Below, one piece after another: positions 27,536-35,025 of a DNA stretch of 64,000 nucleotides. Made by a program: the position numbers and the translations under genes. Position 1 is the first letter of the stretch, and every line of letters starts with the position of its first letter. The notes under the pieces were generated by a model. That model had not been told where the DNA came from and ran no database searches. It worked only from the letters and a program-made list of their open reading frames with translations. The stretch comes from a virus (taxonomy: Duplodnaviria > Caudoviricetes), in IMG/VR virus record IMGVR_UViG_3300037501_000111, positions 256,001 through 320,000 of that record. One strand, 5' to 3'.

Positions 27536-29812
27536 TGGTAAGACAACAATTTCATCCAAAACGTATCTTACGGCTTGGAGAAAGTTGTATCGTCCTATCG
27601 AAAAGGCGACCGATTCCAAGTGCTTTGGGTTTGACCCTGGATTATCTTTCGTAACGGAAGATGGCAAGTACGTTTGGGGTCTAGGGAAATATGAAGCAAT
27701 TCGCCTTAGTGAAGCTCTTCAGCTAAGACGCGGCTAAATCTGTAGGGTTGTCATGAAGTTCGATCTTTCCAAGACGTTCGATGTTACCAAGATTACTCAC
27801 AAAAGCCGTATCCTGGTGGGTGCGGTTCAGGTCAACAAGCCCTTCATCTACCACGATGCCAGTTACGAATGTGCGGCGTGGTGGGAAGATCGTGAAGCTC
27901 AGACTGGAGTGTATCCGGTCTATCTTTCTCGAAGATATCACCACCCCAAGCATCTGACCATCACGGCTCACATCAAGGCTAAAGTGGTGGACGATTACTT
28001 TCCTGGCCTCTGGGGAGGTATACCCTACAAGCCCAAGCACATTGGGGAGGAGCGAATCATTCGCCAGGGTATCGAGGTGGTGGATGCCATCGAACGGACT
28101 GGCAACTCTCCGGGTAGTGACCTGGATTGGTTCATCCACCCTTCGTGGTGGAAGGTGTTCACGGATGAGGCTGAGGCCGAGCTTCGTGAGAACTACCGCA
28201 GACTGTCGGAATTCTGGAACGAGTGGAATAATCTCGACCCCCAGACCTTCAAGGCAAAGATGGATGGTCGCTGGGAATTTGATGATGAGTTTCGTTCCAA
28301 GATTGGAATGATTGCTCACTTCGGAGGTCACTTGGAAAAGTGGGCACGTCGAATCGAGAAGATTAACTGGTGCTCTCAGTATCACAAAGTGGGTGGAAAG
28401 TACGATACGGAGTATCAGCGCAACAACTTCGCTCAGAATACTGAGTGGACTAAGGCACTCGAAATCTAAGCATACACATGAAAGCATACATTTTCCTGAA
28501 GGATGGTCAGAAAGAGGAACAACTTCTCGCCAAAGTGGAGAATTTGGAAGTTGTTCCTTGTGGTATCTATGTTATTGATGGTGTAGAGTACCAGTACACC
28601 GGGCAACCCACCTTCATCATCGAGAAGACCCCTTATCTATATGGTGGTAAACATCAATTGACTAGGGTGGAATTCTCTGTGGAGAAGGTTGGAGAGGTCA
28701 AGCGACAAGGCGACATGTAAGGTGCGTGAATTCTTCATTGTATTCAGTGTATTGATGGCATTATTTACATGGTGGTGTGGCTGGACAGGCCAACCTCGTA
28801 AAACATGCGGCCTCAACATGCTGAATACTTTGCTCAGCTTGGAACTTATTAGAGTGTACGGAGAGAAAGAAAAAGACAATGGGTGATAAAGTCAAGGGCT
28901 GGCATAGTCGTAAACCTAAGAAGCACGGACAGTATTCCGAAAAGAAGAATCGTCCATTGCGCCCTGATCAAGACAAACGTAATCCCTCAAAGGATTCACG
29001 TGGAGATTACAGAAATGGCCGTTATGTTCAGTGGGATTCGGACGAGCGCGAGTACGATTTCGGAGACTAGCCATAATGAAAGACGCAATTTGGGTCTTCA
29101 AGTCTTTCGGTTTTAGGTCCGGAATACTCTTTGTCCTTGGTTCCATCGGTACGAAAATCAGGCGCCTTTTCGTCTGATGAAGAGGCTCGGCAAGTCGCCG
29201 CCCAGTTTGGCATTTTTCCTGGACAAACCAGGCATATACTGAACTATCAATTCAACGAAGAAAACGAAAACAGAACGTTACACTAGTCTCAACAAAGGAA
29301 ATAACATGCGATTCACAACGATCAGCGGTTCGATTTACGAGGTGGATCGAAAGAACAAGAAGATTCGACGCCTCAATGGCAATGCCGATCCTACCCCTCG
29401 TCAGGGCAAAGATGGTGAGTGGCGTGGTTATCTCAACGAGCTTCACATTGAAGTTGGTCAGCCTGTCGTTATTGCATGGGCCGATGCTCATCAACTAACA
29501 GAGGAAACCATGTCTCTTCTTGGAATCTCCGAGAAGGAAGCACCTCCTCCTATGCCTGGTAGAACTACTTTCACTTCCCGAGTGGTAGAGATCGACGACA
29601 AAGTTTACCACTAATCAGTATTGGGATATAATCCCATAAGGTTAGGAAAGTGTTTCGTGTATATGGTGCGCCAACAAGGAAAAATAATAGTCTCATTCAC
29701 TATGTTTGTGGATGCATGGCTCTATGTGTTCTTGGAACTAGAATCGTATGCACGGATTGTTGGGCCAGAGGGTATCTGGATAATCAATCCTGGTAAACAC
29801 TCGGTAAACTAA
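27510..29812 (+). CDS. Block of hypothetical genes (27510-27737, 27753-28469, 28478-28720, 28879-29070, 29306-29614, 29621-29812)
   Basis: Tightly packed co-directional ORFs. Confidence 0.6.
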
Positions 29813-29870
29813 AAGACTTAGCCGCTACATAATCTGCGGGTATTCGAAAATTCCGCTGACACTGTAACGG

Positions 29871-30545
29871 CTCCCATTCACGGCAACCGCTAGCCGATTG
29901 CCGTGAATCGCTTACGAAAACGGGGCACACGAGCCCCATTGAATGACGGAGCTAAATCTCCTCAGAGAGATGACGTAACGGCAGACGATGCCGGCTCCTA
30001 ACTACCTCGTCTCATGACGAGGCAATCTTTTCTTACAATGCGACGAGTAACGTAGATGTGATGAAATCCTTACCAATAATGGAGATCGTCTTCATACTCT
30101 AATACATCATTATATCTTTGTCCTTTGGGTTGGTTCACAACCCTTAGTTCAAGATTGATAAGTCTGTTATCAGACTTATCACCATTGATATGATGTATGT
30201 TTTCGGAGGGTAGAAGTTTTCTCCCTAAATGTTGCTCCATTACATAACGGTGTTCATAATACTGTTGTCCGTTTACATAAATACGTCTATATCCACTAGA
30301 CATTTTGTAGCCGGATCCTTTGGGGCCAATAGTTTTGGTTTCAATATTTATGACAGTTGTACCATCATCTAGCATTCTGTCATAATGTGATTGGCAATAA
30401 CCTTTAGCGTGGTGAGGTCTTTCACAATTTTCTACTTTACAAAGGCGCATTATCTTCTCCTGTTAGTAATATAACAGGGCCAATCGTTAGCTAGCGGGCA
30501 GAAGTTTCTTCTTCCGGGATAGTGTACGATATGTCTCGTCAAAAA
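29871..30545. ncRNA. Candidate structured RNA whose two halves flank an HNH ORF
   Basis: Five or more hairpins in 29876-30060; CCGCTAGC-CGATTG (29887-29900) is complementary to CAATCG-TTA-GCTAGCGG (30481-30497). Confidence 0.45.
30070..30450 (-). mobile_element. HNH homing endonuclease (HNH_3-type)
   Basis: CKVENC, HAKGYCQSHY, YEHRYVMEQHLGR, IHHINGDKSDNRLINL. Confidence 0.9.
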
Positions 30546-30558
30546 AGGAATACACAAC

Positions 30559-30978
30559 ATGAGCACTTCTCTCGATATCACGGTCACGCTCGTCCAGACG
30601 GACGGCCGAATCGACCTTGACCAGTCCACGGCGGCCTTCCGTTCGGCGGCTCTCAAGCGCCAGGCGGAGCTGGAGACCGAGAAGACCGAGATCGCTGCGG
30701 CGGTTTCGGCCATCTTCGACCAGCACTACGGCAAGTCCATCCCGATGCCGACCCTCGGCTCGATGGTGGCGCAGGCCCTCAACGCTCAGCCGGAGAACTT
30801 CGCTGTTCTCAGCGAGCGTGCCCTCAACTACGTTCGTGAGAACAGCCAGGGCGAGGTTAAGGATGGTGTCGAGGAGCGTCCCAATTCGCTCTTCGTCATC
30901 AGCAAGGGTAAGGGCGGCGGCTGCGGTCGTCGTGCGGACCTTCCGGTCAAGCCGGCCAAGGGCAGCAAGACGGTCTGA
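30559..30978 (+). CDS. Winged-helix-like family protein (KGxGGG family), copy 2
   Basis: DGRIDLDQS, KSIPMP, FAVLSER, LFVISKGKGGG. Confidence 0.8.
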   Translation: MSTSLDITVTLVQTDGRIDLDQSTAAFRSAALKRQAELETEKTEIAAAVSAIFDQHYGKSIPMPTLGSMVAQALNAQPENFAVLSERALNYVRENSQGEVKDGVEERPNSLFVISKGKGGGCGRRADLPVKPAKGSKTV

Positions 30979-32080: not shown

Positions 32081-32596
32081 ATGATCATCTACGGATTCTG
32101 GTTCTACGAAGAGTTGGCCGAAAAGGTTGGTGTGGGGCCGGGTAAGCATCGTGGTGATAAGGTTGATTCCTATATCGAACTTCAAGATGTTCGCGGTAAT
32201 ATCTTTGATGTCAAGGTATCGAGCCTACGCTTGGAGTTGTTCCGACAGAATCCAAAGTGTGTCAGTTGTCATCGTATCGGACATCTTTGGATTCTGGAAG
32301 CCCATCATCGAAAAGAGCCTCCCCACTTGAATCTTTACTACTCTGGTGAGGACGAGTGCGGGGATTGGAAGAATCTGTGCAAAGATGGTTTGGTCCTAAT
32401 GACTAAGGACCATATTATTCCTCGCTCCAAGGGAGGCCCCACTAACTTGGAAAATCTTCAAACTATGTGCTCCATCTGTAATGGAATGAAGGGAGATAAG
32501 CTTCATCATCAGATGGTCAAACATAAGAAAACATCAGACCCACTTATTGGGACTGGCTTGATGCAAAATCTTCAAGGGAAGATTCAATTCCTGTAA
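32081..32596 (+). CDS. HNH endonuclease
   Basis: CVSC, MTKDHIIPRSKGGPTNLENLQTMCSICNGMKG. Confidence 0.9.
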   Translation: MIIYGFWFYEELAEKVGVGPGKHRGDKVDSYIELQDVRGNIFDVKVSSLRLELFRQNPKCVSCHRIGHLWILEAHHRKEPPHLNLYYSGEDECGDWKNLCKDGLVLMTKDHIIPRSKGGPTNLENLQTMCSICNGMKGDKLHHQMVKHKKTSDPLIGTGLMQNLQGKIQFL

Positions 32597-33073: not shown

Positions 33074-35025
33074 AGACAGATGAAGAGTTGACTCAACTCA
33101 CCATCAAGATCATTGAGGCTGGTGGGCGCATTCTGCTTCGCAAAAAATCAGAAGGCGCAGATTGGATTCCTAAGTATTGGTATCTACATGCTTGGACCAA
33201 CATCCCTGCTGGACCCGATCATGCTGTATGGGGACAGAAACAAAACGCAATCGAATTCTTCAATCTCAAGTGGGCAATTACGATTGCTCCTCTGTATGGT
33301 TGCAGCGTAGTTGTTGCATATCCTGAGAAAGAAACAGAAGTATGAGTGAAGAATACAACACAGTCACATGCAACAATTGTGGAATTGAATTCAAATTCCA
33401 TAAGAAGATTGAAGACTTGTGGCGAGATACTGAGAAAACTTTCTACTGTCCTAATGGACACGGGTTGGTTTGGAAGAAGCCCAAAGAGTCTAGTGAGCAG
33501 AAAGAACTGAAAAAACTCAGGGCAGAAATTGATGAGCTGAAAAAATAAACTGGCTGCGGCTGAGAAAGAAGCCGCTGACCAAAAGAAAAAGGCTGAGGAT
33601 CTAGCTCTTGAGCTAAAAATCTGGCGACCAACAACTGACGAAAAGAAAGCTGGATAATATGGCTACCAAATTTGTGCTGGAAATCGAGATGGGCAATGAT
33701 GCCATGAAGCTTCCTGCTCATGTAGCAGAGGCGGTGGTGGCTGCTGCTAAGCAGATTCCCCATGTTATTGCTCTGAAGGGATCTTCAATCAAGATCAAGG
33801 ATGCCAATGGTAATACTGTTGGCACCTGGGGATACAAGTAATTCCGCTGATGCTGTAATTTCTCCCATTCACGGCATCCGAGCCGCCCTACCATGAAAAA
33901 AAACTCTCTGGCCCATTGAATGTAAAGTTTATCAATAAGACTTTCTTTCCAGAGTACAAAGATGTTTCAGTAATCAATCAGGGTGAATGCTTCCTATGGG
34001 CTTATCTGGCCTATCGCCTCTATAAGAATGTAGAACTTTGAGACATGGGTGCACATGCGTTCGTGCGTGACAAGGTAACTGGTAAATTCTACGATTCCGA
34101 GAGGCCCAATGGCGAGGAAGACTGGAAGGATTTGCCGGCTACTAACTGGGGTAAAGGTTGCGGCTGTTCCTGCTGTCTGGAACCTGCACGTAAGTTCAGT
34201 GTTGCTCGGAAGTTTCGATATGCCTGGAGGGGGATGGCTAAGCGCCACCATGTACGGTGGAAGAAACTCCACCTACAAATCAAACAGGTAATTGAGAAAA
34301 ATACATGAGAGCACCTTGGGAAACAATCTCTACTGGATTGGACCAACTATGGTTCACTCCATTTTCCGATTGCGAAACTCCACAAGATAGAGCAGATGCA
34401 ATCGAAAACTTCCTCAAGTTCAATGGTTGGAATTGGGATGAAGTTCTGAATGAAATAGCAAAGGAAACTATCAATGGACCAGAACCAGTTCGTCACTGAG
34501 CTTTCCAAGCTCCGTCCTTCTTCGACTTTTTTGACGGTGAAGGGATACCGTAACGAAGCCAGCGAGATCGCTGACTACAGCATCGTCTTCCACATGAGTT
34601 ACGAAAATGCTCTCAAGAAGAGCATCGAGACTCTTGCAGCACTCGACCTTCAAACTGACCTGGAGAAGCAGGCACGAGCAGAACTGATCGATAGCTTCAA
34701 TAAGTCTCTGGCTAAGGGAGCCAGTGACGCAGCTCTGGAAGAGCGTGACCCGGTCTACTCCTACTTTAAGGACGAGAGTGGAAACTATGTCAAGGGCGTC
34801 AAGTACCATGAGGCAACTGGCACTCTTCACCTGTACGGTTTGGTCGTTCACAAGCGTACGCTTCTACCTGGTATCTATGCCAGCAAAAACAAGAAGCCGC
34901 TGACTATTGCCAAGGACAAGCTGCGGCATCTGACTCCGGTTGGTAAGTTTCGCCAGTTCAAGATCACTCCCGAACAGGTTGACAGCATCACCGTCCAAAA
35001 CGTTTCTTTGCTTCCCCCGGAGTGA
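33070..35025 (+). CDS. Block of hypothetical genes (33070-33345, 33342-33657 with A-run frameshift, 33659-33841, 34045-34308, 34305-34499, 34474-35025)
   Basis: Overlapping start/stop junctions; co-directional. Confidence 0.6.

Follow-up and report, generated by a model that had tools for sequence, protein, structure and literature searches.

Which RNA is interrupted by the small HNH gene described here, to which gene does this RNA belong, and how did the HNH gene come to lie inside it? The DNA that was analysed, called the window below, is a stretch of 64,000 nucleotides from a virus of the Caudoviricetes. One of its non-coding stretches (29813-30558) contains an HNH open reading frame in antisense orientation, with folded sequence on either side. 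A first-pass annotation flagged the part from 29871 to 30545 as a structured RNA split by the HNH gene, with pairing across the insertion, and proposed an intron-like or new endonuclease-associated RNA element. Our comparison with related loci bears out the first half of this proposal, a structured RNA interrupted by an antisense HNH gene, and not the second, its intron-like or endonuclease-associated nature. The flagged stretch is probably a two-part folded 5' leader RNA of a conserved giant-phage gene, with the HNH gene copied antisense between the two modules.

The left limit of the non-coding region is set by the end of a small conserved ORF of 49 codons (MVRQQGKIIVSF...; plus strand, 29663-29812, in frame within the ORF 29621-29812). 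This ORF lies directly 5' of the leader and is conserved in at least four relatives, its codons being kept in loci L001, L003, L018 and L023. It is followed on the same strand by an imperfect hairpin with a conserved upstream element, GGTATTCGAAAATTCCGCTG...CTGTAACGG (29821-29872), seen in the minimum free energy (MFE) fold and kept in relatives. The same element accompanies a second copy of the motif described next, at 33862; it could serve either to terminate the preceding gene or as an element upstream of the promoter.

The leader itself begins with the motif CTCCCATTCAC (29871-29881, plus strand). Thirty copies of this motif are present in the window, all of them on the plus strand, compared with 1.2 expected by chance; GG usually comes next and a gene start follows 20-70 nt further on. 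In its copy number, strand bias and spacing to GG and gene start the motif thus behaves like a phage-specific promoter, and it is located at the equivalent place in the relatives. It is a putative promoter of this kind, at which the leader transcript most likely starts. The regions upstream of two of the copies (29839-29870 and 33840-33861) have a common element, AATTCCGCTGA..CTGTAA, which is retained before the leader in most relatives and may bind a regulator or form an upstream part of the promoter. In the more distant relatives L068 (1170-1500, upstream of the gene start at 1501), L009, L010 and L007 the motif reads CCCATC and is directly followed by a small hairpin with a NAAC loop (for example CCCATCGCCCAACGGTGG), sometimes two per leader.

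The 5' module (29876-30035) and the 3' module (P5) are both read on the plus strand. The former opens with hairpin P1 (29876-29908), in which the last six bases of the motif already take part. The 11-bp pairing of ATTCACGGCAA with TTGCCGTGAAT (29876-29886 with 29898-29908), noticed in the first-pass annotation, is confirmed, and an inverted-repeat search extends it to 14-nt arms that are 93% complementary. P2 (GGGGC/GCCCC, 29922-29937) follows and, directly 3' of it, the invariant single-stranded AUUGAAUGAC (29938-29947). Next comes a three-way junction (29948-29998) closed by P3, GGAGC(U)/(G)GCUCC, in which GGAGC at 29948-29952 pairs with GCTCC at 29994-29998; it encloses two hairpins, the variable arm P3a (29956-29971) and P3b (CGGCA/UGCCG, 29979-29993). 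The module is closed by P4, a terminator-like hairpin CCUCGUC/GACGAGG followed by the pyrimidine tail CAAUCUUUUCUUA (30005-30035 with the tail; arms CCTCGTC/GACGAGG at 30005-30022). The junction pairing and the P4 arms had likewise been recognised before and are present.

Immediately after the tail lies the inserted HNH cassette (30037-30482, with boundaries placed by alignments to within a few nucleotides), which contains an intact HNH_3 gene of 126 amino acids on the minus strand (30070-30450). Beyond it the plus-strand structure resumes with P5 (30483-30530), a long hairpin made of the helices AUCGU/ACGAU, GCUA/UAGU, GCGG/(U)CCG and AGAAG/CUUCU. The nearly invariant AUGUCUCGUC, replaced by ACGUCUCGUC in one sequence only (L023), and an A-rich Shine-Dalgarno region with AAGGAA at 30545-30550 complete the leader (30531-30550), and the downstream gene, coding for a protein of 139 amino acids with a winged-helix-like fold, occupies 30559-30978 on the plus strand.

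Whether these flanking structures form one RNA can be read from genomes that lack the HNH gene. Searches with both flanking proteins and with an 18-mer taken from the junction core led to the first relatives, two large viral contigs of 210 kb and 481 kb; 82 more loci were then collected with a profile built for the family of the 139-aa protein, which has 106 homologues. Eleven distinct relatives, which are uncultured giant-phage loci, lack the HNH gene: L001/L006 (210 kb), L003/L005 (481 kb), L017-L020, L022-L025 and the 5'-truncated L021. All 11 lack the whole cassette and keep both flanking structures, joined: the leader RNA runs in one contiguous piece between the promoter-like motif and the conserved gene, in the order motif, P1, P2, AUUGAAUGAC, three-way junction, P4 with pyrimidine tail, short linker, P5, AUGUCUCGUC, A-rich Shine-Dalgarno region and ATG. 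In the ten loci that are not truncated, 233-310 nt separate the motif from the start codon. From these alleles the window departs solely by an insertion of about 446 nt (30037-30482), which falls into the linker joining the P4 tail to P5. As HNH-less relatives keep the flanking structure, a genuine RNA is present here, and the HNH gene does divide it.

P5 is strongly covarying. RNAalifold and single-sequence folds gave the same four-helix hairpin in the window and its relatives, and a covariance model of it (R1) finds P5 in 31 loci, always directly upstream of the start codon and on the strand of the gene, reaching relatives with only about 35-45% protein identity; the window copy scores 81 bits (E 1e-15). 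P5 goes with the 139-aa gene and not with the HNH gene: none was found near other HNH_3 relatives in 80 IMG/VR loci, and R1 gave no match in 235 kb around unrelated HNH_3 loci. In the 31-row alignment 96.5% of cells are paired, versus 22-48% when the partner strand is slid, and changes on both sides occur in 16 of the 17 pairs (129 cells); these counts come from a model-fitted alignment, which favours the structure, and the margin is nonetheless very large. Helix a, for instance, reads AUCGU/ACGAU in the window and GCUAU/GUAGC in relatives, which amounts to four consecutive double changes. U.G and G.U pairs are frequent and can be tolerated on the plus strand only, so the structure belongs to a plus-strand RNA, sense for the 139-aa gene and not for the HNH gene. 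The window P5 has lost a GA/GA internal loop that close relatives keep. It may thus be functionally impaired, and regulation in the phage of the window may be altered. In L026, a locus without the 5' module, P5 is followed (about 1440-1470) by a strong terminator-like hairpin, CTCAAGGAACTTCCTTGAG with TTTTT, and then by the ribosome-binding site, which suggests that certain lineages may release P5 as a short RNA.

The 5' module presents a different picture, being limited to a close clade and almost invariant in sequence. Its covariance model (R2) recovers it in 12 loci at 76-141 bits, with no further copy elsewhere in the window or in other loci. The junction-core 18-mer also has two matches in prokaryote genomes; neither matched R1 and one of them, L089, scored marginally with R2 (8.6 bits, E 0.18), and both were rejected as chance matches. 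The three-way junction is predicted independently in 12 of 12 sequences. P1 is present as a hairpin in the relatives with an unrelated sequence in each, the P2 stem shows no variation while its loop is variable, and the helix at P3a changes from lineage to lineage, its length ranging from the 5 bp of the window to more than 25 bp, with branched arms of about 70 nt at the upper end. P2, P3 and P3b offer no covariation, since their sequences never vary. P4 contains two pairs with compensatory changes (7 cells in total), and the hairpin with its T-rich run was flagged by a terminator scan. Relatives retain a tail motif, CUUCUCUUA, CUUUUCUUA or ACUUACUUA; the tail is pyrimidine-rich, yet its U-tract is weak in several of them. 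In sequence P4 and its tail resemble an intrinsic terminator. Judged by its distribution, the module seems to have been added in one clade, upstream of P5, which is the older element.

No catalogued RNA accounts for either module. At gathering scores Rfam finds only three tRNAs in the whole window, all outside 29800-30560, where ARAGORN and the Rfam tRNA/tmRNA models detect none. Searches of the region at E ≤ 10 gave merely chance microRNA and snoRNA matches, those of 10 relatives at E ≤ 1 nothing relevant, and a search of cultured-phage DNA at distant sensitivity a single irrelevant match of 65 nt. The RNA modules match no Rfam 15 family and are previously uncatalogued.

The protein behind the leader has 106 homologues and belongs to no Pfam or PHROG family. 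It has no tblastn match in 50,697 phage records and, within this set, is a family without cultured representative. Its AlphaFold2 model (pLDDT 86) consists of a long helix, a winged-helix-like domain and a basic tail; winged-helix proteins match residues 40-126 with middling VIA Z scores of 7-8, Foldseek gave no match against the PDB at E ≤ 0.001, and an ESM Atlas feature search returned nothing usable. The gene looks like one for a nucleic-acid-binding regulator. The G+C content of the gene is 0.61-0.67, that of the adjacent HNH cassette 0.35-0.40 and that of the neighbourhood about 0.45; the relatives' copies of the gene look G+C-rich too.

How might such a leader work? The 3' arm of P4 and the first bases of the tail (UGACGAGGCA) can pair with AUGUCUCGUC, just 5' of the Shine-Dalgarno region, forming an alternative helix of 9-11 bp in 12 of 12 sequences. 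The P4 arm varies solely by transitions that retain this pairing via G.U, and L023 shows a double change from A-U to G-C in the alternative helix; support for the helix thus consists mostly of wobble-compatible transitions plus this one double change. Full-length MFE folds of L006, L020 and L025 pick the alternative helix, which then encloses P5. Together with the conserved junction fold and the conserved P4 hairpin with its T-rich tail, this suggests the following scheme. The leader would be read on the plus strand from the promoter-like motif at 29871 and would control the downstream gene in cis. P4 would end transcription, or its 3' arm would re-pair with AUGUCUCGUC beside the ribosome-binding site, and P5 would be the likely operator at which a trans-acting factor docks; this factor might be the product of the gene itself. 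A cis-regulatory leader of exactly this design, with a terminator/anti-terminator-like switch in the 5' module and P5 as operator, is a tentative proposal that we nonetheless take seriously. In the window the insert moves the partners of the alternative helix from about 95 nt to about 535 nt apart, and the predicted leader transcript would be antisense to the HNH message.

The main rival to the cis-leader model would make the 5' module an independent gene for a trans-acting small RNA of about 155 nt (29871 to about 30035), with P5 and the 139-aa gene as a separate unit and the HNH gene landed between two genes. The module does come with a promoter-like motif of its own and with a terminator-like hairpin whose tail is T-rich, it is found in one clade only while P5 is widespread, and its conservation of 97-98% relative to L006 would suit an RNA acting in trans; the terminator-like hairpin behind P5 in L026 adds that short RNAs are seemingly made at the locus in some lineages. 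However, in none of the 12 loci does a second promoter motif stand 3' of the module and ahead of the gene, which makes co-transcription the simplest reading. Moreover, the position of the module relative to the gene is always identical, R2 finds no further copy in the window or in the other loci, and the 3' arm of P4 is complementary to a nearly invariant sequence beside the ribosome-binding site. We judge the independent small RNA rather unlikely, and keep to the cis leader below.

It might also be argued that the hairpins act only at the DNA level or are incidental (terminator clusters, recombination hotspots or protein-binding palindromes), without function as RNA. The plus-strand fold of 29800-30075 is unusually stable (z -5.75; none of 200 shuffles as good), but the minus strand folds better still (z -6.5), and P2, P3 and P3b lack covariation, as such a reading would allow. 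It is nevertheless very improbable: P5 and P4 keep their pairing through compensatory changes, with U.G pairs whose counterparts in the opposite strand would be A.C, P3a stays a helix with unrelated sequences, and position relative to the ribosome-binding site is fixed in 31 loci.

With the leader so understood, the HNH gene appears as a later arrival. Its product carries a homing-type nuclease domain (PF13392, HNH_3, E 8e-10; phrog_20891, E 1.6e-19) and the ORF is stand-alone. In 5.8 billion sequences its closest relatives are P0108 (62% identical) and P0109 (56%), both matching at full length. P0109 is encoded in L087, in antisense orientation, 120 nt upstream of a 132-aa homologue of the 139-aa gene, with P5 between the two and the promoter-like motif beyond the HNH gene; the contig of P0108 has the matching gene order with a gap of 129 nt. 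More distant HNH relatives, including P0110 and P0115, lie in unrelated contexts.

Comparison with the closest relative, L006, reveals a mosaic. Identity is 93% over the promoter and P1, 98% over P2-P3, 97% over P3b, 90% over the UTR and 89% over the first 120 nt of the gene, but falls to 61% for P4 plus tail and to 56% for P5, the lowest values of all relatives in both cases. The P5 of the window is nearest to that of the HNH-bearing L087 (78%), with which it has an apical AGAAGUUUCUUC hairpin and CCGGGAUAGUG in common. The elements beside the insert, P4 and P5, are thus foreign-looking relative to L006. Free-standing homing endonuclease genes in intergenic regions, and co-conversion of their flanks, are established for the seg and mob genes of phage T4 (PMC2988022; PMC2790892; PMC2330249). 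The mosaic pattern fits such co-conversion during intronless homing, although it could be partly due to the divergence of L006 itself, whose P5 scores only 80 bits. We propose that the HNH_3 gene was copied antisense into the linker by intronless homing and would have brought foreign adjacent hairpins with it, the incoming P5 retaining its helices through compensatory changes.

Several further observations concern HNH genes in this neighbourhood. The HNH coding sequence of the window includes a near-perfect inverted repeat with 18-nt arms (30149-30188), whose 5' arm is not conserved in the L087 HNH gene; internal terminators have been reported within mobE and segF of T4 (PMC2988022). In L087 (1750-3372) HNH_3 genes stand on both sides of the 132-aa homologue, one of 243 aa abutting its 3' end and one of 123 aa in the leader, and a third is found 2 kb away. 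A second, unrelated HNH gene (PF01844/HNH_5, 171 aa, plus strand, 32081-32596) lies 1.5 kb downstream in the window.

A bolder version of the leader model brings the leader and the HNH gene together. The 5' module would represent a new class of giant-phage sensing RNA, responding to a ligand or protein and toggling between the P4 terminator and the long-range helix beside the ribosome-binding site; the HNH protein would target the leader DNA; and the P5 linked to the HNH gene would be an immunity allele. If so, this allele would change the recognition sequence while compensatory changes preserve the RNA fold. As a whole we consider this version unlikely.

The pairing across the insertion, as proposed in the first-pass annotation, is a separate matter. 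The complementarity exists: the P1 loop and 3' shoulder, CCGCTAGC-CGATTG (29887-29900), match CAATCG-TTA-GCTAGCGG (30481-30497) over 8+6 bp with a 3-nt bulge. A duplex of the P1 region with the right-hand piece has -31.2 kcal/mol, a value reached by 0-2% of shuffles, and it beats 98.8% of 2308 other segments of the window (1.2% reach it). The pairing is not conserved: it is absent in 10 relatives, including the HNH-bearing L087 (z -1.5 to +1.6). The near arm is different in every relative, and the far arm belongs to P5, a covarying local hairpin, as its 5' strand. With one arm variable and the other occupied by a covarying helix, we read the match as specific to the window and not as a functional element. 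Assignment of the far arm to the HNH cassette, as a two-sequence alignment had it, was rejected after a multi-sequence alignment and folds placed it in P5. A second pairing noted across the insertion, GACGAG (30042-30047) with CTCGTC (30535-30540), is present as well; a 6-mer match is trivial alone, and the former lies within the insert, without counterpart in the relatives, while the latter is part of AUGUCUCGUC.

That the HNH gene sits within a group I-like intron or a new endonuclease-associated RNA, whose halves pair across the insertion and might splice or circularise, is hardly credible in spite of this unusual complementarity and of structured RNA on both sides of the gene, for cmscan finds no group I, group II or HEARO match at E ≤ 10 on either strand of 29400-30800, exons are absent, the ORF leaves only about 65 nt of the insert (some 33 + 32 nt) uncovered, and the flanking RNA occurs without the HNH gene in 11 relatives and follows the 139-aa gene instead.

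The two-part leader with an HNH insertion contributes two RNAs to what little is known of non-coding RNA in giant phages: a strongly covarying, uncatalogued cis-RNA (P5) and a clade-specific, nearly invariant junction RNA. Both go with a conserved gene that resembles one for a nucleic-acid-binding regulator. Here a homing endonuclease gene has entered a structured leader and respected a module boundary, which makes the locus a clear natural case of such an event. The locus raises the questions of what the leader senses and whether homing endonucleases select immunity alleles that preserve RNA structure.

Related layouts are found in terminator-based riboswitches and attenuators and in autoregulatory leaders of phage or ribosomal-protein genes, such as the T4 gene 32 leader. 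The present leader shares with them the succession of promoter, conserved junction-rich fold, terminator-like hairpin, ribosome-binding site and gene, an alternative pairing for the terminator 3' arm and, right before the ribosome-binding site, a conserved hairpin. Unlike them, it matches no Rfam family, and its termination and switching are predicted from sequence.

HEARO, the omega-RNA of IscB (RF02033), is likewise a structured RNA beside an HNH-domain gene. An IscB-type protein combines RuvC and HNH domains in about 400-500 aa, whereas the protein of the window has 126 aa with HNH_3 only and no RuvC; besides the missing model match, the RNA here is encoded opposite to the HNH gene and goes with a different gene. 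Group I introns (RF00028) with HNH ORFs (for example I-HmuI and I-TevIII; PMC3984707) resemble our locus in having folded RNA on both sides of the ORF. They differ from it in that no ribozyme core (P3-P8, with the guanosine-binding site in P7) was detected here, exons are lacking, the insert is almost wholly ORF and genomes without the HNH gene have the flanking RNA whole and in one piece.

The nearest parallels come from T4. SegB, in a tRNA gene cluster, is a homing gene between structured-RNA segments that promotes inheritance of its region (PMC2330249); it is, however, a GIY-YIG enzyme gene between separate tRNA genes, while here an HNH_3 gene divides two modules of one protein-gene leader. 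The free-standing endonuclease genes of T4 (mobE between nrdA and nrdB; segA-G; PMC2988022, PMC2790892) share most with our locus: a small nuclease gene without intron or intein, an intergenic position between conserved genes, presence or absence among close relatives, and mosaic flanks as expected from co-conversion. In contrast to them, the HNH gene described here runs antisense and separates two RNA modules by occupying the linker of a structured 5' leader, the flank presumed to be co-converted is itself an RNA hairpin with compensated helices, and cleavage by the HNH protein is a prediction. That such genes lodge in intergenic regulatory regions is known; what is new here is the target, a bipartite structured leader whose hairpin is still folded after the presumed co-conversion.
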